Assembly (NCBI GenBank): GCA_964384105.1 | Contig: CAYLJV010000001.1 | Span: 480,001-544,000, forward strand | Length of the DNA stretch: 64,000 nt | Origin: Candidatus Hadarchaeota archaeon | GTDB taxonomy: Archaea; Hadarchaeota; Hadarchaeia; Hadarchaeales; JAGGTB01 | Reading direction: 5' to 3' | Shown: one piece after another, positions 18,743 to 27,623 of the stretch | Layout: every line of letters starts with the position of its first letter | Position numbering within the stretch: the stretch's first letter is position 1 | Notes under the pieces: model-generated | What the model saw: only the letters and a program-made list of their open reading frames with translations | Told to the model about the DNA's origin: nothing | The model's database searches: none | Program-made: the position numbers and the translations under genes

Positions 18743-19498
18743 TTGAATTCTGATTTTTCCTTTTTAAGAAAATTTAATGCTTTTATGGGTTTTCTACACC
18801 TTTTTCAGGCTATTTTAATGTTAATCCTCAGTAATGATTTTTCTCTCACGATAACGAATACTTATCCGGGGGGACCGCCGGGAAGTGGGGAAATAATTAC
18901 GGAAAGTATTGGTAGTTTAAGAATAGGTCCATTAGTAGCAGTTTTTCTACTTATTTCTGCAGTTTGTCACTTTTTGCTCGCAACAATTCTCTACGATTGG
19001 TACGTCAGAAACTTAAAGAGAAACATCAATCATCTTCGTTGGATTGAATATTCCTTCAGCAGTTCGATTATGATTGTTATTATCGCTATGTTTGTTGGAT
19101 TTTTTGATATCAGCGTTCTCCTATTGATCTTCATCTTGAACGCTTCTATGATATTTTTTGGATGGTTGATGGAACTTTATAATCAGAGAACTGAGGAAAC
19201 TAAGTGGTCTCCGTTCATTTTTGGTTGCATTGCTGGTGCGGCTCCATGGGTTGCAATTGCCATTCGTCTTATAACGGCTGTTTGGAGTTCTCCAGTAGAC
19301 GTTCCAGGTTTTGTAATAGGAATTTTTGTCTCCATAGCCATTTTCTTTAATATATTCGCCTTGAATCAGTTACTTCAGTACAAGAAAGTAGGTCGTTGGA
19401 GGAATTACATATTCGGCGAAAAAATGTATATCGTTCTTAGCCTTGTAGCAAAATCAGCATTGGCTTGGCAGATTTTCTCTGGAACCCTGATAGATTAA
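18743..19498 (+). CDS. heR: Heliorhodopsin
   Basis: 7 TM; helix A His (FLHLFQA), helix B His (SAVCHF), RWIEYSFSS (Arg plus Glu counterion), LSLVAKS (retinal Lys). Confidence 0.95.
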   Translation: MNSDFSFLRKFNAFMGFLHLFQAILMLILSNDFSLTITNTYPGGPPGSGEIITESIGSLRIGPLVAVFLLISAVCHFLLATILYDWYVRNLKRNINHLRWIEYSFSSSIMIVIIAMFVGFFDISVLLLIFILNASMIFFGWLMELYNQRTEETKWSPFIFGCIAGAAPWVAIAIRLITAVWSSPVDVPGFVIGIFVSIAIFFNIFALNQLLQYKKVGRWRNYIFGEKMYIVLSLVAKSALAWQIFSGTLID

Positions 19499-19939
19499 GT
19501 CAATGTCTATTTCGGCGATTGATAAAAGACGAATTACTAACGTATCTTGATAAGAGTTATTCTTAGTGCAATAAATTTAGTATGGGGATTTCTATCCCAA
19601 GTACCAAATCCCGATAGTGAACTCTCAATCGAGATTGAAAAATTCAAAATTGACACAAGAATCTCAATCTTGATATTCTTTCATTCAGTATGGAGGAGAG
19701 CGGCTTAGTTCTTCTAGAAGAATTAAAAATACCCCGAATCAAACCAAAGTCAGATTCTTCACTTTTAAGAAGTATAATTGACGAAATAGTAAGAGCAAGA
19801 GGTTGTGGTACCTGTATGAAAAAGGAAGAATCTCTACTTTATAAAAGGCTTTTTAGAAAAGAATAAATACGATCTCCATCAAGTTTGTTTGAATGATTTC
19901 ACACTTGATACTATTTTTCATAAACAAAGGATTTGAAGG

Positions 19940-21457
19940 TTGAAAATTTTGGCTAAGTCGCTTATGGGTAAAAAACCGAAAGTAGCCTTCTTTGATTTTG
20001 CAGGTTGTGAAGGAGATCAGTTACAGATAGCAAATCTTGAAGAAAAAATACTGAATCTGTTGGATCTTGTGGAAATAGTAAGTTTCAGAGAGGTTATGAC
20101 TGAACACTCAAACGACTATGATATCGCATTTGTTGAAGGTTCCATAACGAGACCAATGGATGAAGAGCGATTAAAAACTATAAGAGCAGAGGCTAAGAAG
20201 CTTATTGCTTTGGGAGATTGTGCCTGTAATGGTGGTGTAAACAAGTTACGGAATGATTGGTCGGTAGAGGATGTGGAAGAGGAGGTTTATCAGGGATCGG
20301 AGGATGTGATAAAAGACAACGAATTCTTCAACGCATATCCAACTAAGGCAGTTGATGAGATTGTGGATGTGGACTATTACATACGGGGATGTCCGGTTGA
20401 AGGAGAACAGGTGTTTTATTTCATAAAAAGACTGGTCTCTATGCCTTTAGAATCTAACAAAGATGTTTATTTTGACATTACGTTAAAAAATATAGATGTA
20501 GACGAACGTTCTCTGGTCAGTTACAATCCCAACAAGTGCATTCTATGCCGACGATGTGCCAATATTTGCCAAGACGTTTTGGGTGTTGATGCATTAGGCC
20601 CGGTCGATAGAGGGTGGACTACCATTATTTCGACCCCTGAAAACATAGGCTTTGATGCTAATGGTTGCATACAGTGTGGTCAGTGTATTTCTGTTTGTCC
20701 AGTCAATGCGCTTTACACAAAGTCACCTGTAGAGGGTTTGATTGAAGAGCTGAAAAATAGTGAACTTTCTATTGCTGTGGATTCCGTTGCGCTAGCATCT
20801 TTTGTTCAGAATCACCGGCTACTCAGTGATCTAGATCCAAGTCTCGCAGAGAAATATGTTGTAGCAGGTCTTAGGAAAATAGGATTTCGTAGAGTACTTC
20901 AGTATGATAATTATCTCCATAAGTCTCGAGAGGAGGATGAGAAGGCCGATAGTGCGATTCTTGCTAGCTGGTGTCTCCCTGCTCGAAATTATTTTGATGT
21001 TAGTAGTACCAGTGTTCTACGTTCGTATGAGGAAAACTCTCCTTGGAATTTGCTTATAGGTGAGGAGGGCGAAGGAGTCTGCTTGTTGAGTCCGTGTATA
21101 GGTCTCAAGGAGATTGAGCGATTAGGACCTGTGATTACTTCTCCGGAATTGGAAGAACTTTTCAATAAGATGGAATTAGATTTGGGGTTTTTGGATCCAG
21201 AGAATGGCGAGTATGACGGAGAGGTTGTTGACGAAGGTTTCGAACATCCAGGTGTTCCATCTAAAAAGGATACATTCAATATCACTGATGATTTGAAAAA
21301 TGAATTAGCTGAATCAGATCTTTCTGAGGGCCCAATTGGTGTTTTTCCATGTCTTAAGGGATGTGTGAGTGGTGGCGGTAATTATCCCACCGTCGATGAA
21401 TCCGATATACAGGAAAGAGTTGATTGGATTAATAATTTGAGGGGGGTTAATTTATGA
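19940..21457 (+). CDS. Hybrid subunit: group 3 [NiFe] small-subunit N-domain + 2x[4Fe-4S] + degenerate [FeFe]-hydrogenase (HydA) H-domain
   Basis: AGCEGD, FVEGSI, GDCA and RGCP; then KCILCRRC and CIQCGQCISVCP; then SWCLP, SPCIGLK and FPCLKGCVSGGG. Confidence 0.88.
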   Translation: MKILAKSLMGKKPKVAFFDFAGCEGDQLQIANLEEKILNLLDLVEIVSFREVMTEHSNDYDIAFVEGSITRPMDEERLKTIRAEAKKLIALGDCACNGGVNKLRNDWSVEDVEEEVYQGSEDVIKDNEFFNAYPTKAVDEIVDVDYYIRGCPVEGEQVFYFIKRLVSMPLESNKDVYFDITLKNIDVDERSLVSYNPNKCILCRRCANICQDVLGVDALGPVDRGWTTIISTPENIGFDANGCIQCGQCISVCPVNALYTKSPVEGLIEELKNSELSIAVDSVALASFVQNHRLLSDLDPSLAEKYVVAGLRKIGFRRVLQYDNYLHKSREEDEKADSAILASWCLPARNYFDVSSTSVLRSYEENSPWNLLIGEEGEGVCLLSPCIGLKEIERLGPVITSPELEELFNKMELDLGFLDPENGEYDGEVVDEGFEHPGVPSKKDTFNITDDLKNELAESDLSEGPIGVFPCLKGCVSGGGNYPTVDESDIQERVDWINNLRGVNL

Positions 21458-21939
21458 TGGAGAGCAAGGTTGAAGAGTTGTCTTGGGAAGAGAAAAGGAA
21501 ACTAGAGAAGATAATAGACTCTGTTGATAATCCTGAATATCAGAAAATAGAGCTTCTTCAAAAGACTCAAGAGGAGTATGGATGGTTGAAAGGTGAACAC
21601 ATGAAGTATATCGCTGAATGTATTGATACCAGTTATACAGATCTTTTTGGTATTGCGACCTTCTATTCTCAATTTACTCTTCATCCGCCAGGTCGTCACA
21701 AGATATCTGTCTGCATGGGGACCAGTTGTCATGTGAAAGGGGGCGAAGAGCTGATGGAAGAGTTACAGGAAATATTGAATATAGGAGTTGGCGAAACAAC
21801 GGACGACAAACGATTCTCTCTTAATCAGGTTAGATGTTTAGGTTGTTGTGGTCTTGCTCCGGTGATTGATATAGATGGTAAGATATTCAGTAGGGTTAGA
21901 CCCGCTCAAATAGAAGATATTCTGGAAGAATTTGAATAG
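21454..21939 (+). CDS. HydC/NuoE-like [2Fe-2S] subunit
   Basis: ATFYSQF, VCMGTSCHVKG, CLGCCGLAP. Confidence 0.93.
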   Translation: MMESKVEELSWEEKRKLEKIIDSVDNPEYQKIELLQKTQEEYGWLKGEHMKYIAECIDTSYTDLFGIATFYSQFTLHPPGRHKISVCMGTSCHVKGGEELMEELQEILNIGVGETTDDKRFSLNQVRCLGCCGLAPVIDIDGKIFSRVRPAQIEDILEEFE

Positions 21940-21947
21940 GTGATAAG

Positions 21948-24900
21948 ATGGTTATAGAAAAAATAGAAGATTTGGAAGAGATGGCCAAGATAGGCAAAAG
22001 AGAATTGGAATCCTATAATCCTAAGATAATATTTGGACATTCTACGTGCGGTATAGCTGCTGGTGCAGACGAGTTGATTGATTTTACAAAAGAATATTTA
22101 CGCAAAAATAATATCAAAGAAAAAATTGGGGAAAGAGGTCAGCCAGATATCGTTTCAGTAGGCTGTATAGGGATGTGTCATGCTGAACCACTTGTTGATA
22201 TTAAGATGCCAAAAAAGCCCAGAGTCACTTACTATAATGTTGATAAAAATAAATTGGAGCGCATATTAAACGAGCACTTGATCAATGACCGTCCAGTTGA
22301 AGAGTATGTACTGGGTCAACTCTCAAAAGAATTATCCGTTTGTGAACACGGGAGAGTTGATTACTCGTGGCAGTACGAACGCATACCCTCTTTAGATGAA
22401 CTTCCATTTTTATCCAAGCAAGTCAGAGTAGTTCTCAGAAATTGTGGTATTATAAATCCCGAATCTATTGGACAGTATGTTGCCAGAGGTGGTTACAGGT
22501 CCGCTTTAAAGGTTCTCAGTAAATACCATCCGCAGGGGGTCATAGAGGAGGTAAAAGAAGCAAATCTAAGAGGGCGGGGTGGAGCTGGTTTCCCGACTGG
22601 TTTAAAGTGGGAATTTGTGAGAAAGGCCGATGGAGAGCCAAAGTATTTAATTTGTAATGCCGATGAGGGGGATCCAGGCGCGTATATGGATCGTTCAGTT
22701 TTGGAGGGTGATCCACACAGCGTTATAGAGGGTATGATAATTGGTGCATACGCTATGGGTGCCTCTGTTGGTTATATTTACGTGAGAGCTGAATATCCGC
22801 TAGCCATTAAAAGATTGAAAAATGCTATAGAACAGGCGAAAGAGTACAACCTTCTCGGCGAGAATATTATGGGTAGCGATTTTTCTTTTGAGCTGAAAAT
22901 AATGAAGGGTGCTGGTGCTTTTGTTTGCGGTGAAGAGACTGCGCTTATCGCTTCTATAGAGGGTAAGAGAGGGGAACCACGTACTAAACCACCTTTCCCT
23001 GCGAATTCCGGTTTGTTTGGTAAGCCAACTAATGTGAACAATGTTGAGACGTGGGCGAACGTTCCTATGATTTTCGAGAAAGGTGCTGATTGGTTTAAAA
23101 GTATTGGTACAGAGAAGAGCAAGGGTACAAAGGTCTTTTCTCTTGTGGGAAACGTAGAACGTTCTGGGTTAGTTGAGATACCGATGGGAACCAAATTGAA
23201 AGAGATAATATACGAAATTGGAGGGAACATGGAAAATAACAGGAGGTTTAAAGCCGTGCAAACTGGTGGGCCTTCAGGCGGATGTATACCTGTAGATCAT
23301 CTCGATGTTGAAGTTGATTATGAGAACTTGAAAAAACTCGGATCTATTGTCGGTTCCGGCGGAATGGTTGCTATGGATGAAGACACATGTATGGTCGATG
23401 TTGCCAGATACTTTTTGGATTTTTGTGTAGGAGAATCCTGTGGACAGTGTGTTCCCTGTAGAATAGGAACCAGACGAATGCTCGAGATTCTGGACCGTAT
23501 AACTAGAGGTGAAGGAGATATAAAGGACATTGATATTTTGGAACATCTCGCGGTTCAAGTTAGAGATGGTTCACTTTGTGCCCTTGGTGGGACTGCTCCC
23601 AACCCAGTCCTAACTACTCTCAAATATTTCAGAAATGAGTATGAACAACATATTGAGGGAAAAGAGTGCCCTGCATCTTCCTGTGCCACCTTATTCCTTT
23701 CTCCCTGTCAAGACACGTGCCCAGCTGGTACGAATGTGCCTGGTCAAATGCAACTAGTTGTAGAAGGACGAATTGGAGAAGCTTATGAGCTACAGCGGGA
23801 GGATAATCCATTCCCTGGAGTTTCTGGTAGAGTATGTGATCACCCTTGTGAGGACCGGTGTCAACGGAGTCAACTTGATCGAGCGGTTTCGGTTATGGCT
23901 CAACATAGATTCGTCGCAGACCAGGTTTATTCTGGGGAGGTAGAGGATAGACCAGAGACCACAAGACTCGATCCAACAGGCAGAAGTATTGGAATTATTG
24001 GAGGGGGACCGGCAGGTCTTACAGCTGCTTATTTCCTGAAGAGACTGGGCCATGATGTTACAATATATGAAGGCCGTCCTGAACTTGGTGGCATGCTTAG
24101 GTGGGGGATCCCTGAGTACAGACTTCCTAGAGATATATTGGACTGGGAGATTCAGCAGATAATAGATCTTGGCGTTAATGTAAAACTTGACACTTCTGTT
24201 GGAAAAGACATATCATTTAATGAGGTACTGGATACGCATGATTCGATTTTCCTAGGTATTGGGGCTCATAAAGATATCTCGCTTGGATTAGAAAACAGCG
24301 ATGTGCTTGGGATACTGGAGGGGATGAAACTTTTAGAGAAGGTAAACAAGGGCGAGGAAGTAGAACTAGGTAACACAGTTCTGATAATTGGTGGGGGGAA
24401 CGTTTCAGTTGATATGGCAAGAACAGCACGGAGGTTAGGTTGTGAGAGAGTTATAGTCGCATATAGGCGGGAAGAGGTCGACATGCCGGCTTACCCTGAA
24501 GAAGTCGAGGAGGCTAAAAGGGAAGGTGTTGATTTCAAATTCCTCCTGTCTCCTGAAGAGATTATAGTTGAAGGTGGGAAGGCTGCAGGAATGGTATTTA
24601 CTAAGACTGAGATGGGTGAATATACCAAGGAAGGGCGTCGAAAACCGATGCCTTTAGAATATGAGAAAACCGTTTTGATGGCTGACACCATCATAACTGC
24701 TATCGGTCAGGAGATAGACAAAAGTTTTGCAGAAGATTTAGTTGATGAACTAACTGATGAGGAAAATAGACTTTTAGAGGTTGATTCCCTCACAATGAAG
24801 ACAAATCATCCAAAAATATTCGCGGGTGGGGATGCAGTTTTAGGTCCCTCAACAGTAATTGAAGCAGTCTCTCATGGTAAAAAAGCTGCTAAGGAAATAG

Positions 24901-25136
24901 ATGCTGAACTAATGGGTGAAGATAGGATGGAAGAACTGAGGAGTATTAATGACTATGATTATTCCATGGAAGAACGTGATAATGAGCAGTATATCCCCAG
25001 AGCGGAATTACAATCGCTCTCTGTTGAGGAGAGAAAAGATAATTTCAAAGAGGTTATTAAGTGTATGGATAGAGAAACTGCTGTGGGGGAGGCAGAACGC
25101 TGCCTAAGGTGTGATATAGGGAAGGGAGGAAAATAA
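21948..25136 (+). CDS. HydB/NuoF-like FMN diaphorase fused to a GltD/NfnB-like FAD-NAD(P)H domain
   Basis: N-terminal thioredoxin-like Cys domain; GRGGAGFP, NADEGDPG, CGEETAL, GGPSGG, CGQCVPCR; then GRVCDHPCE, GGGPAG, GGGNV, YRR, EAERCLRC. Confidence 0.93.
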   Translation: MVIEKIEDLEEMAKIGKRELESYNPKIIFGHSTCGIAAGADELIDFTKEYLRKNNIKEKIGERGQPDIVSVGCIGMCHAEPLVDIKMPKKPRVTYYNVDKNKLERILNEHLINDRPVEEYVLGQLSKELSVCEHGRVDYSWQYERIPSLDELPFLSKQVRVVLRNCGIINPESIGQYVARGGYRSALKVLSKYHPQGVIEEVKEANLRGRGGAGFPTGLKWEFVRKADGEPKYLICNADEGDPGAYMDRSVLEGDPHSVIEGMIIGAYAMGASVGYIYVRAEYPLAIKRLKNAIEQAKEYNLLGENIMGSDFSFELKIMKGAGAFVCGEETALIASIEGKRGEPRTKPPFPANSGLFGKPTNVNNVETWANVPMIFEKGADWFKSIGTEKSKGTKVFSLVGNVERSGLVEIPMGTKLKEIIYEIGGNMENNRRFKAVQTGGPSGGCIPVDHLDVEVDYENLKKLGSIVGSGGMVAMDEDTCMVDVARYFLDFCVGESCGQCVPCRIGTRRMLEILDRITRGEGDIKDIDILEHLAVQVRDGSLCALGGTAPNPVLTTLKYFRNEYEQHIEGKECPASSCATLFLSPCQDTCPAGTNVPGQMQLVVEGRIGEAYELQREDNPFPGVSGRVCDHPCEDRCQRSQLDRAVSVMAQHRFVADQVYSGEVEDRPETTRLDPTGRSIGIIGGGPAGLTAAYFLKRLGHDVTIYEGRPELGGMLRWGIPEYRLPRDILDWEIQQIIDLGVNVKLDTSVGKDISFNEVLDTHDSIFLGIGAHKDISLGLENSDVLGILEGMKLLEKVNKGEEVELGNTVLIIGGGNVSVDMARTARRLGCERVIVAYRREEVDMPAYPEEVEEAKREGVDFKFLLSPEEIIVEGGKAAGMVFTKTEMGEYTKEGRRKPMPLEYEKTVLMADTIITAIGQEIDKSFAEDLVDELTDEENRLLEVDSLTMKTNHPKIFAGGDAVLGPSTVIEAVSHGKKAAKEIDAELMGEDRMEELRSINDYDYSMEERDNEQYIPRAELQSLSVEERKDNFKEVIKCMDRETAVGEAERCLRCDIGKGGK

Positions 25137-25804
25137 TGGAAATAATCATAGATGGTGAACAGTATGAATGCCAGCCGGGTCAGAAAGTTTATGATGTGGC
25201 TGAAGAGAATGGTATTCATATTCCCACTCTCTGCTATAATCATTTGATTCCTGAGATAAGACCAGGTGCATGTAGAATTTGTGTTGTAGAGGTTGTTAAT
25301 AATGGTAAAGAAACGCAACTTGAGTCTAGTTGCACTTTGCCAGTCTCTGAAGGTCTAGAAGTTTCAACAAATAGTCAGGCTGTATACGATGAGAGGAGAC
25401 AGGACCTTGAACTGATGCTTTCTGAACATGAACAGGATTGTCGAAATTGTGTCAAGAGTGGAAATTGTAACTTTGCCGAGCTATGCTTGGAATATGATAT
25501 AGATGGAGTATCTATATGTGCAGAGTGTCCTAAGCAAGAGAGTGGATGTTTTCTTTCCAGGGGGGTGCTTTGCCTCGGTCCGATAACCCATGCAGGTTGC
25601 GATGCTTTCTGTCTGAGGAAGGACGAACCATGCGAGGGGTGTTTCAGCTTGCTTAGCGATGAGAGTGTACTAAAATTCGGTATTGAAGCCTTAAAGGAGA
25701 CGGGATTTGATAAGGATGAAGTACTTGAGGCTGTGAAGATTTTTTCTTTTGATGGGTTAAAACGGTTAGAAATGTTAATGGAAAAAGAGGGATGGAATGA
25801 GTAA
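25136..25804 (+). CDS. HydA/NuoG N-terminal [2Fe-2S]+His-[4Fe-4S] domain fused to the C-terminal half of a [NiFe] small subunit
   Basis: IPTLC...GACRICVVE...SC and HEQDCRNC..SGNC; then ICAEC...CLGPITHAGCDAFC...PCEGC. Confidence 0.88.
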   Translation: MEIIIDGEQYECQPGQKVYDVAEENGIHIPTLCYNHLIPEIRPGACRICVVEVVNNGKETQLESSCTLPVSEGLEVSTNSQAVYDERRQDLELMLSEHEQDCRNCVKSGNCNFAELCLEYDIDGVSICAECPKQESGCFLSRGVLCLGPITHAGCDAFCLRKDEPCEGCFSLLSDESVLKFGIEALKETGFDKDEVLEAVKIFSFDGLKRLEMLMEKEGWNE

Positions 25805-27104
25805 AATTGATATAAATGTGGAACTTTTGACTCGAGTTGAGGGACACGGTAACATAGTAGTTAATGCAGAGGAGGGCAAGATTAAGGAACTTTCGTGGAA
25901 AGTTGAAGAAGCCCCGCGATATTTTGAGGCTTTAGTTAAAGGTAAACCACATCACCAGTTAGCTCAGATTACTTCGAGAATTTGCGGAATTTGTTCCATG
26001 GCTCATCAATTAACTTCTTTGAAAGCTACAGAAAACGCGATGAATATCGAAGTATCTGAACGCGATGAACTTCTTAGAAGGCTTGCACTTCACGGTGAAT
26101 TTATTCAAAGCCATGTTCTCCACTGTGGTTATTTGGCTTTGCCGGATTTACTTGAAGTTGGATCAGTTATACCTTTAGCTTCTTCAAATCCAGATGAACT
26201 TAAAAATGTCATTAGGGTGCATAGAGTGGGTAATGAACTTTCTGACTTAGTCGGAGGTAGAAATACGCATCAACGAAGGCTTGTCCTAGGTGGACTTTCA
26301 AAACTGCCTTCACCACTAGAACTTAGGACATTAAAAAGTAAATTAGCTGATTCTTTAAAGGATTTAGAGAAATTGGTATCGTTCTTGAAGGGAGTGGTGT
26401 CCCAGTTACCTGATTTTAGACGCGAGACTGAATTTATATCTTTGAATCATGAAAAAAGATATCCACTCTACGATGGTAACATAGTTTCATCTGATACAGG
26501 TACTGCTCCGGTTGAGAAGTATTTGTCGATAACTAATGAGTATGTGGTTCCACAATCAACAGCTAAATACACTAAGCACAATCGGGAATCTTATATGACT
26601 GGAGCTCTAGCGAGATTTAATAATAATTATGATCATCTTGGGTCAGAGGCTAAGGAAGTTGCAGAAGAGTTTGGATTGGAACCAATATGTCATAGACCTT
26701 TCATGAACAATATTGCTCAGGTAGTAGAAACTGTACACTGTACTGTAGACGCAATAAAAATTATCGATGAATTGTTAGACAAAGGACTGGACTCTCAGGG
26801 TGAATATTGTCAACCTCACGTAGACGTAAAATCAGGAAGAGGAGTTGGAGCAGTTGAAGCTCCACGAGGTATTCTCTTCCACGACTATACTTACAATAAG
26901 AAGGGAGTGTGTACTAAAGCGAATTGTATTATTCCTACTAATCAGAATCATGGAAACATTCAGAGAGATTTAGAAAAAATGGTGCCAGAAATGATGGATG
27001 AGCCAGAGGAAAAAATAGAACATTCTTTAGAAATGTTGGTGAGAGCCTATGATCCATGTATTTCTTGTTCTACACATTATCTAGACGTAGATTTCGTTGA
27101 TTAA
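25797..27104 (+). CDS. [NiFe]-hydrogenase large subunit, group 3 (3b-like)
   Basis: TRVEGHG, L1 RICGIC, EAPRG, L2 DPCISCSTH followed by a short cleavable tail. Confidence 0.96.
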   Translation: MSKIDINVELLTRVEGHGNIVVNAEEGKIKELSWKVEEAPRYFEALVKGKPHHQLAQITSRICGICSMAHQLTSLKATENAMNIEVSERDELLRRLALHGEFIQSHVLHCGYLALPDLLEVGSVIPLASSNPDELKNVIRVHRVGNELSDLVGGRNTHQRRLVLGGLSKLPSPLELRTLKSKLADSLKDLEKLVSFLKGVVSQLPDFRRETEFISLNHEKRYPLYDGNIVSSDTGTAPVEKYLSITNEYVVPQSTAKYTKHNRESYMTGALARFNNNYDHLGSEAKEVAEEFGLEPICHRPFMNNIAQVVETVHCTVDAIKIIDELLDKGLDSQGEYCQPHVDVKSGRGVGAVEAPRGILFHDYTYNKKGVCTKANCIIPTNQNHGNIQRDLEKMVPEMMDEPEEKIEHSLEMLVRAYDPCISCSTHYLDVDFVD

Positions 27105-27161
27105 CTGCTTTTTGTTCGATCAATTCATGAAGATCTTTGAGAATACAGATTTAACTTTACG

Positions 27162-27623
27162 ATGAAGGCAATTATAGGTTTGGGAAATCCAATTAGGGCT
27201 GATGATGGAATAGGCATACGCTTAATTAAAGAAATTAGGAAAAAGGATCTCCCTCCCGATGTGGAAGTTTTCGACTCTGGCAACCGGGTAATGAGATTAT
27301 TACATCTTTTAAACGATTTAGAAATAGCCGTTATAGTAGATGCAGTCCATTTTGGTGGAAATCCAGGAGATTTTGTTTTCTTTTCGCCGGAAGAAGTAAA
27401 GTCTCTGAACACATCTAAAAATACCCATGATACCAATATTCTGGAGGTTCTTGAACTATCCAAAACTCTGAATAAAGAATCAAAAGAGATAATAATAATG
27501 GGGATTGAACCGAAAGATACGTCTTTTGAGGAAGGTATTTCGCAAGAACTTAAAGATCGCCTGCCTGAGATGATAGATGAATTATTAAAGAAAATAATGG
27601 TTATGGGATCGGATGGAAAATGA
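27162..27623 (+). CDS. Hydrogenase maturation endopeptidase (HycI/HybD family)
   Basis: GLGNPIRADDGIG, VDAV, NTHD. Confidence 0.93.
   Translation: MKAIIGLGNPIRADDGIGIRLIKEIRKKDLPPDVEVFDSGNRVMRLLHLLNDLEIAVIVDAVHFGGNPGDFVFFSPEEVKSLNTSKNTHDTNILEVLELSKTLNKESKEIIIMGIEPKDTSFEEGISQELKDRLPEMIDELLKKIMVMGSDGK

Follow-up and report, generated by a model that had tools for sequence, protein, structure and literature searches.

Does an operon that joins a [NiFe] hydrogenase to parts of an [FeFe] hydrogenase encode an enzyme with two sites for H2, or with one? The question is raised by a locus of Candidatus Hadarchaeota archaeon (assembly GCA_964384105.1) in a stretch of 64,000 nucleotides, called the window here (contig CAYLJV010000001.1, positions 480,001 to 544,000 of the forward strand). 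Six open reading frames (ORFs), tightly packed on the + strand at 19940-27623, very probably encode one soluble, multi-subunit group F [FeFe] / group 3f [NiFe] hybrid hydrogenase. To judge from its sequence, this soluble complex would act as an oxidoreductase between H2 and NAD(P)+/ferredoxin, probably by bifurcation or confurcation, and its one certain site for H2 is the [NiFe] site. Its first subunit is a fusion of the small subunit HyhS to HydA, and the HydA-type catalytic domain (H-domain) is of a short form. The residues aligned with the four Cys of the [4Fe-4S] part of the H-cluster are certainly kept in this domain, and the evidence leans slightly towards its not being a standard H2-active H-cluster site. 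The short forms are a separate clade, yet only two long forms have been assayed; testing one short form would decide the 'hybrid' label for most of the group. The short-form H-domain, which has lost a pocket-lining segment and evolves faster than the other domains of the protein, also bears on the minimum size of an H-cluster domain.

To our knowledge, no hybrid [FeFe]/[NiFe] hydrogenase has been purified as a complex, and the genomes in which such enzymes occur number only a few dozen, all of uncultured archaea. The class was first described in 2024 (Greening et al., Cell 2024; PMC11216029, cited here from excerpts of its text and of Table S2). Group F [FeFe] hydrogenases are defined there by the HyhS-HydA fusion, to which HyhL, HydB, HydC and a HydD with four clusters are added as its four contiguously encoded partners, and the templates used to place cofactors in HydB included a glutamate-synthase chain. 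Table S2 counts 21 group F genes and labels their neighbours '[NiFe] Group 3b' by HydDB. Both of its UBA287 entries have the order hydA-hydC-hydB-nuoG-like-hyhL-hyaD. This order is identical in the window, protease included, and the fusion, HydC, HydB with its GltD-type domain, the four-cluster HydD and HyhL are likewise contiguous. The relative P0060 (500 aa), which is the UBA287 protein DAEG01000100.1_3 as far as that is printed, is 45% identical to the window fusion over 95% of the query. The genome has no HydEFG, as is the case for most genomes of that study. The operon thus adds to the published class and is no new class, and the initial annotation was right both to see the general plan of the group F hybrids in it and to call the class known. 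It differs from the members assayed and modelled in 2024 in that these UBA147 proteins are of the long form (591 aa, 67 kDa). The identity of the window fusion to long forms is 38-44% overall and 25% in the H-domain. A limited search of the literature from 2024 onward found no later paper characterising group F hybrid enzymes.

The proposal that the first gene fuses a [NiFe] small subunit to HydA turns on whether the C-terminal domain of its product is homologous to HydA. In Pfam the fusion matches Oxidored_q6 at residues 23-164 (E 3.1e-24), followed by two 4Fe-4S motifs. Residues 262-505, scanned alone, miss the gathering threshold of Fe_hyd_lg_C (PF02906; 13.3 bits against 22.1, E 0.066), and there is no match to PF02906 anywhere in the genome. 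Long-form relatives do reach it (73.8 bits, E 2.1e-20 for the one at locus L058). The PF02906 model misses the short form, and the homology is shown by other means. A phmmer search of the PDB sequences places the bifurcating HydA1 of T. kivui (8a6t_A) on top with E 7.6e-21 over residues 175-321, followed by T. maritima HydA and A. woodii HydA1. Together these matches span residues 175-323, the CxxxCxxGGG (L3) motif gives another, weak one, and the ferredoxin-like F-domain matches 8a6t HydA1 from residue 121 onward. In NCBIfam the fusion matches FeFe_hydrog_A6 (E 5.9e-29). Its N-domain covers positions 3-155 of the 261 of NF040836, after which the match continues in HydA from position 134 onward. 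About 85 database clusters have the full HyhS-HydA architecture. PF02906 is present in the longer ones, which have about 570-590 aa and share 36-44% identity with the window fusion over 97% of its length.

The ligands and the fold agree with this assignment. W344, C345, P368, C386, C471, C475, G478 and G479 are invariant in all 77 aligned fusions, as are both [4Fe-4S] motifs of the F-domain. In a MAFFT alignment the Cys of the H-domain fall on the second Cys of the group A TSCCP motif, the Cys of MPC and those of CxxxC-GGG. The AlphaFold2 model has a mean pLDDT of 87.3, with most blocks of the H-domain above 95 and residues 1-8 disordered. Foldseek finds T. maritima HydA first (E 2.1e-17). The model superimposes on CpI with Z 31.6 and rmsd 3.1 over 326 residues; its residues 190-505 match residues 25-416 of the D. 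desulfuricans hydrogenase (Z 27.6), while residues 11-183 match residues 1-194 of the delta subunit of P. furiosus SHI (Z 21.4, rmsd 2.0, 159 aligned). The gene therefore encodes HyhS at its N-terminal and HydA at its C-terminal end.

The ORF of the fusion runs as first annotated, except for its start. The true start is likely the ATG at 19964, which would give 497 aa, because the database copy P0005 has 497 aa and model residues 1-8 have a pLDDT below 50. A second difference from the assayed enzymes lies at the proximal cluster, where the second Cys of the CxxC motif is an Asp (residue 26, window 20015-20017), while C23, C94 and C151 are present. D26 occurs in 10 of 55 short forms, namely the window fusion and nine close relatives, and in none of the 21 long forms with a residue in this column. 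In other hydrogenases Asp is known as a ligand of [4Fe-4S] clusters of this kind, and the proximal site with D26 may still bind a cluster. The coordinates of the genes and domains are collected in Table 1. The ORF check bears out five tightly coupled genes and a protease at these positions. The first and second genes overlap by 4 nt, the third and fourth by 1 nt and the fourth and fifth by 8 nt, while 8 nt separate the second gene from the third and 57 nt the fifth from the protease gene. An NCBIfam scan of the six products agrees with the Pfam names, and HydC, HydB::GltD, HyhL and the protease keep the names first given to them.

Table 1. Genes and domains of the hybrid hydrogenase operon (positions in the window; residues of the fusion counted from its first TTG)
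Feature	Positions	Strand	Details
HyhS::HydA fusion	19940-21457	+	505 aa from first TTG; Oxidored_q6 + Fer4, PDB phmmer
Fusion N-domain, [NiFe] group 3 small-subunit core	19964-20494	+	residues 9-185; proximal-cluster ligands C23, D26, C94, C151
Fusion F-domain, two [4Fe-4S] motifs as in HydA	20495-20722	+	residues 186-261; C200/203/206/210, C243/246/249/253
Fusion H-domain, short form	20723-21454	+	residues 262-505, about 244 aa; SWC345, SPC386, C471xxxC475xxGGG
HydC, NuoE-like thioredoxin-fold [2Fe-2S] subunit	21454-21939	+	161 aa; 2Fe-2S_thioredx PF01257 E 3.1e-48; NuoE and HoxE in NCBIfam
HydB::GltD	21948-25136	+	1062 aa
HydB NuoF-like part, FMN/NADH site and [4Fe-4S]	21948-23672	+	residues 1-575; Complex1_51K PF01512 E 3.7e-50; NADH_4Fe-4S PF10589 E 1.6e-34
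HydB GltD-like part, two [4Fe-4S], FAD and NAD(P)H Rossmann folds	23673-25136	+	residues 576-1062; Fer4_20 PF14691 E 3.7e-19; Pyr_redox_2 PF07992 E 6e-29
HydD, NuoG-like	25136-25804	+	222 aa; Fer2_4 E 2e-15; NADH-G_4Fe-4S_3 E 2e-10
HydD N-part, HydA/NuoG N-terminus	25136-25495	+	residues 1-120; [2Fe-2S] C33/C46/C49/C66; His-[4Fe-4S] H98/C102/C105/C111
HydD C-part, group 3b small-subunit C-terminal cluster region	25496-25804	+	residues 121-222; eight Cys, two [4Fe-4S]
HyhL, group 3 [NiFe] large subunit	25797-27104	+	435 aa; NiFeSe_Hases PF00374 E 5.8e-30
[NiFe] large-subunit C-terminal maturation endopeptidase	27162-27623	+	153 aa; HycI PF01750 E 9.9e-23; TIGR00072 E 4.4e-35, above cut-off

The HydA and small-subunit parts that are missing from the fusion are found in HydD. 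This subunit had been described as a NuoG-like Fe-S protein, which holds for its N-terminal part; the C-terminal cluster region of a [NiFe] small subunit, which it also contains, had been overlooked. Residues 2-130 match the N-terminus of HydA (NF040763 positions 2-125; PDB 7q4v_A and 7t2r_A), and residues 121-217 match positions 161-257 of the 261 of NF040836 and positions 159-238 of NF040831. The C-part also matches the stand-alone small subunit P0090 (BLASTP E 9e-11), and its Cys C128, C131, C138, C146, C155, C159, C166 and C169 are invariant. All 16 ligands of HydD are invariant in 72 relatives and are sufficient for four clusters. By their sequence matches, the fusion is HyhS-N::HydA-C and HydD is HydA-N::HyhS-C, a pair of reciprocal chimeras made from a HydA and a small subunit. 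This composite nature is implicit in PMC11216029, where HydD was modelled from HydA-like and small-subunit chain templates.

Structure prediction of the fusion together with HydD gives a complex score of 0.83 in three runs, against 0.00 for the best of three controls; this mark is reached by 116 of 157 solved complexes and by 2 of 215 mismatched pairs. At least 82% of the contacts are shared between runs, with a partner pLDDT of at least 87. HydD residues 120-207 contact residues 93-183 of the small-subunit domain, residues 94-113 contact the F-domain at 196-209 and 252-256, and residues 32-46 contact the H-domain at 472-490. These predicted contacts rebuild both parental folds across the two chains, so that the fusion and HydD are predicted to interlock. 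Since HydA and small subunits have been solved as single chains, the high score may stem from this likeness and is no proof of binding.

The fusions fall into two clades. A quick IQ-TREE analysis covered 87 rows, the 77 fusions and a group A outgroup of 10, with no HydDB reference set and no rows of groups B-E or G. In this tree the fusions stand apart from group A (SH-aLRT 100) and divide into a short-form clade of 55 rows (support 100, stem length 1.34), which includes both the window fusion and P0060, and a long-form clade of 22 rows (support 94). In the MAFFT alignment about 50 residues of the long form have no counterpart inside the H-domain of the short form. Among ten group F rows of Table S2 examined (PMC11216029), most have 413-500 aa, and the 591-aa UBA147 protein is the exception. 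Among 65 genomes of the class, the full-length fusion occurs only in the window's genus: the short form in the window genome and in one congeneric (63% identity), and the long form in three others (33-34% identity). A single-protein search of genome contigs gave three loci, all with stand-alone small subunits. A metagenome scan with general patterns from the fusion alignment kept 80 loci, of which five have the fusion, all of the short form and one of them a fragment; most of the others have a group 3 small subunit standing alone or are HydABC loci of group A.

The case against a standard H-cluster site rests on what the short H-domain has lost. It is without about 50 residues that align to the FGATGGVMEAALR helix of group A and the hairpin that follows, and also without about 22 residues at its C-terminal end. 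It has Trp at the position of the relay Cys of TSCCP, as all fusions do, and of two pocket Met one is exchanged for Ser or Thr and the other for Phe or Tyr; the relay and pocket roles are those that we take these residues to have in CpI. The H-domain is also the least conserved domain of the short forms, with a mean pairwise identity of 0.45 against 0.63 for the N-domain and 0.69 for the F-domain. The corresponding values are 0.53, 0.66 and 0.66 within the long forms, and 0.25, 0.62 and 0.49 between short and long forms. A set of 29 group A HydA shows the opposite ranking (0.51 and 0.57, with the H-domain highest at 0.60), although this control counts for less, as it came from the query's own matches and is an unbalanced sample.

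The rival explanation is a true dual-site hybrid, as in the 2024 paper, in which H2 is turned over at two places, the [NiFe] site and a genuine H-cluster housed in the short H-domain. The two arms would meet at a common cluster ahead of the bifurcation module of HydB and HydC, and the H-cluster would be built by a route independent of HydEFG. This explanation is a serious contender, if somewhat short of an even chance, and much of what is conserved weighs in its favour and against a lost H-cluster. Besides the four Cys ligands, K390, the GGG motif and P368 are invariant or nearly so in the 77 relatives, and the fold is that of HydA, with the Z score of 31.6 against CpI. The residues E304, D333, W369, Y425 and H436-P437-G438, which are invariant and specific to the short form, look like a remodelled pocket, not a decayed one. 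The invariant ligands, taken with the H-domain pLDDT above 95, likewise look like a sign of maintained function rather than decay. The long-form protein Th1 is active after artificial maturation, and a group F H-domain without the relay Cys makes H2 when given the synthetic [2Fe] cofactor (PMC11216029). On the other side stand the deletion of the pocket-lining segment, the replacement of the relay Cys and of both Met, and the low conservation of the H-domain. The assays in the excerpts of that paper count on both sides: they cover long forms only, Th1 (5.1% of CrHydA1) and Th2 (0.36%), both 67-kDa UBA147 proteins.

The maturases have to be weighed in the same way. HydE, HydG and HydF are below their cut-offs throughout the genome (49.5, 25 and 53.8 bits against 254.6, 312 and 325.6), which speaks against a dual-site enzyme in a genome that is 90.2% complete. 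However, most archaeal genomes with [FeFe] hydrogenases have no HydEFG, and one of these yielded an active enzyme (PMC11216029). Since the absence of HydEFG is usual in such archaea, it is weak evidence.

A stronger form of the preferred reading, in which the short H-domain is not a standard H-cluster site, can be put forward tentatively. The domain may no longer activate H2 and may be a remodelled remnant of HydA that keeps only the [4Fe-4S] cubane or another cofactor. Just as tentatively, the same may hold for the window's clade and, by their length, for most of the catalogued members of group F. If so, the hybrids would be functionally [NiFe]-only hydrogenases coupled to NAD(P) and ferredoxin, the reciprocal chimeras would be the fossil of one crossover between hydA and hyhS, and the long forms would be the genuinely [FeFe]-active members.

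The [NiFe] site itself is well preserved. Large subunits of [NiFe] hydrogenases bind their metals with an N-terminal RxCGxCxxxH and a C-terminal DPCxxCxxH motif. HyhL has RICGICSMAH (L1) near its N-terminus and DPCISCSTH (L2) at its C-terminus, followed by an 8-residue cleavable tail, so its description as a group 3 large subunit with intact L1 and L2 holds. Its best solved match is the alpha subunit of P. furiosus SHI (9nez_D, E 3.3e-65), and its nearest NCBIfam families are ShyA and the HydA sulfhydrogenase alpha subunit, both below their cut-offs. It is 64% identical to the large subunit of the classical 3b set in the same genome.

The diaphorase part of the complex is assembled from known modules. 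The NuoF-like part of HydB matches 9bov_B, 8oh5_B, 9n5u_B, 7t2r_B, 7q4v_B and 8a6t_B with E from 1e-174 to 1e-209, and the NuoF-like and NuoE-like subunits are homologous to HydB and HydC of the proven bifurcating cores of the Bfu family. The GltD-like part matches residues of about 102-567 of 9bov_A, 9n5u_A (NfnA) and 8oh5_C (E 1e-99 to 1e-115). AYRR occurs around its second Rossmann fold, a motif that we take to be associated with a preference for NADPH. In StnABC the GltD module binds FAD and NADPH, and its two [4Fe-4S] clusters carry electrons to the bifurcating core (PMC10482914, also cited from excerpts).

Gene content, homologies, fold, conserved ligands and the predicted interlocking of the fusion with HydD suggest a hybrid enzyme with the following mechanism, a reasonably likely account in which the stoichiometry of the complex, the electron path, the substrates, the direction and the cofactor of the H-domain are all conjectural. 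H2 would be split or made at the [NiFe] site of HyhL, which would be matured by the protease of the operon and by Hyp proteins encoded elsewhere. Electrons would exit via the proximal cluster of the fusion's N-domain and pass to the two clusters of the HydD C-part, which would complete the small-subunit fold across the chains. From there they would move through the HydA-type F-clusters and the His-[4Fe-4S] and [2Fe-2S] clusters of HydD to the flavin module of HydB and HydC, with its FMN/NADH site and a putative bifurcation site of the Bfu type. The GltD module on HydB would add an FAD/NADP(H) site, so that H2 would be coupled reversibly to NAD(P)+ and probably to ferredoxin. Bifurcating or confurcating coupling appears fairly likely.

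Against such coupling, a canonical C-terminal ferredoxin domain of HydB is not evident as a separate unit in Pfam, and the coupling to ferredoxin is for this reason uncertain. A non-bifurcating, NAD(P)-linked [NiFe] hydrogenase, in which HydBC-GltD would be a diaphorase that replaces the 3b beta and gamma subunits without ferredoxin coupling, would agree with this, with the close identity of HyhL to the classical 3b large subunit and with its best solved match, as P. furiosus SHI is NADPH-linked. The GltD module alone, moreover, supports NADPH:dye activity in StnC (PMC10482914). Such an enzyme is nevertheless unlikely, because HydB and HydC have their closest relatives among the subunits of Bfu enzymes with proven bifurcation (8oh5, 9n5u, 7t2r, 7q4v, 8a6t), and a second plain NADP-hydrogenase would be redundant in a genome that already has a classical 3b set.

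A complex that regulates or senses H2, rather than a metabolic enzyme, is very improbable. It is brought to mind by two bacterial short-form relatives, P0045 (859 aa) and P0061 (869 aa, named a Planctomycetota response regulator by one source), in which a receiver and a histidine-kinase ATPase domain lie N-terminal to the HyhS-HydA unit, an architecture that hints at a sensory use of this module. The window fusion has no signalling domain in Pfam, and it is accompanied by a full diaphorase module and a protease, in the order of the metabolic operons of PMC11216029.

The electron-bifurcating NiFe-HydABCSL of Acetomicrobium mobile (7t2r/7t30), which the operon had been said to recall, follows the same idea of a [NiFe] dimer plugged into a bifurcating core of the HydABC type, and its chains are among the best PDB matches of HydB (E 2.8e-202), HydD (1.8e-20, with the N-part of HydA) and HyhL (7.3e-46). 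There, however, a small subunit of 179 aa and a HydA of 692 aa form two chains, whereas parts of both are fused here. The A. mobile HydA matches only the F-clusters of the fusion (residues 177-259), with no match to the H-domain, and that enzyme has no GltD module. The Bfu-family transhydrogenase Stn/NfnABC (8oh5, 9n5u; PMC10482914 and PMC12018979) shares the HydB/HydC-type core and the GltD-like FAD/NADPH module with two [4Fe-4S] clusters, but this module is inserted in the NuoG-like subunit, while here it is fused to the NuoF-like one, and Stn/Nfn has no hydrogenase catalytic subunit. In classical 3b enzymes such as P. furiosus SHI (9nez), which provide the nearest solved relatives of the large subunit and of the small-subunit N-domain, the small subunit is intact; here it is split, its N-part being joined to HydA and its C-part to the N-terminus of HydA. 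The beta and gamma subunits of SHI have no counterpart in the operon, as the initial annotation remarked, and a complete classical 3b-like set is found elsewhere in the genome. The group A3/A6 HydABC enzymes (7p5h, 8a6t, 7q4v) are alike in F-clusters, H-domain fold, HydB and HydC. Their H-domain is about 130 residues longer than that of the window fusion and has TSCCP in place of SWC(L)P, and their HydA N-terminus is on the same chain, while here it is on another (HydD).

The assembly (1.62 Mb in 12 contigs, with the operon on a 717-kb contig) has HypD (486 bits) and HypF (904 bits), both outside the window. It had been noted that the window holds no hydEFG or hyp genes, and none is found among its 48 other ORFs of at least 90 aa at Pfam E of 1e-10 or below, a limit that genes as short as those of HypA and HypC could escape. 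PF00374 matches five loci genome-wide, the hybrid and four other [NiFe] loci typed by their neighbours, and a 90%-complete genome with these four is a good context for asking what the hybrid adds. The four lie on contig 1 at about 230-234k, 409-415k and 34-40k, and on contig 5 at about 16-21k (L060-L063). They include the classical 3b-like set, of four genes, an Hdr/Mvh-like set followed by an aldehyde:ferredoxin oxidoreductase, a membrane-bound group 4 set and, on contig 5, a NiFe-HydABCSL-like set (NuoF 571 aa, NuoG-molybdopterin 631 aa, small subunit 182 aa, large subunit 473 aa).

The long-form loci of the genus have a different setting. In three genomes (L057:4351-13499, L058:2337-11998 and L059:1-6500) the fusion has 573-577 aa, and the order, where the contig allows it to be read, is an HdrA-MvhD fusion, the long-form fusion, HydC, HydB-GltD, HydD and an HdrB/C-like CCG protein, and no [NiFe] large subunit lies beside them. 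This order points to a hydrogenase of the [FeFe] type that an orphan small-subunit domain would link to heterodisulfide reductase. The arrangement was not seen among the rows of Table S2 examined (PMC11216029).

Variation at the first Cys motif of the H-domain is found in other relatives too. The group A HydA proteins P0095-P0124 mostly have TSCSPGW in place of TSCCPGW, which may be a matter of alignment or a real variant. The Ser of this motif falls at a position that we take to be that of a cubane-ligating Cys. The Thermoproteota and Odinarchaeota rows of group F (PMC11216029, Table S2, as far as excerpted) have PYSEAE, PSSEAE or ARSPVE where the short clade has SWC, with no Cys before the L2 Cys; on this reading they would be left with three of the four ligands of the cubane.

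The gap before the operon contains the string TTTATAAAAGG, which may be an archaeal TATA box, at about 19838-19848, some 115 nt ahead of the ATG at 19964. A sigma-70 promoter and terminator scan gave nothing usable, as its model is unsuited to archaea, and among the public runs no RNA run is listed for the operon and no expression data were found. The same gap contains an ORF of 59 codons with a CGTC motif at 19690-19867 (+), which is not seen in the shorter upstream gap of the congeneric short-form locus L056. The flanks of the operon are housekeeping genes (aRF1, tRNA synthetases and FtsZ), and its GC content is only slightly raised (0.41-0.43 against 0.34-0.39); both disfavour an origin by a mobile element or by recent transfer. 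Directly upstream, about 440 nt from the operon, is a heliorhodopsin gene at 18743-19498 (+; PF18761, E 2.4e-101), a protein of a light-sensing type that adjoins an enzyme of a strictly anaerobic type, and DNA of this genome occurs in microbial-mat runs.

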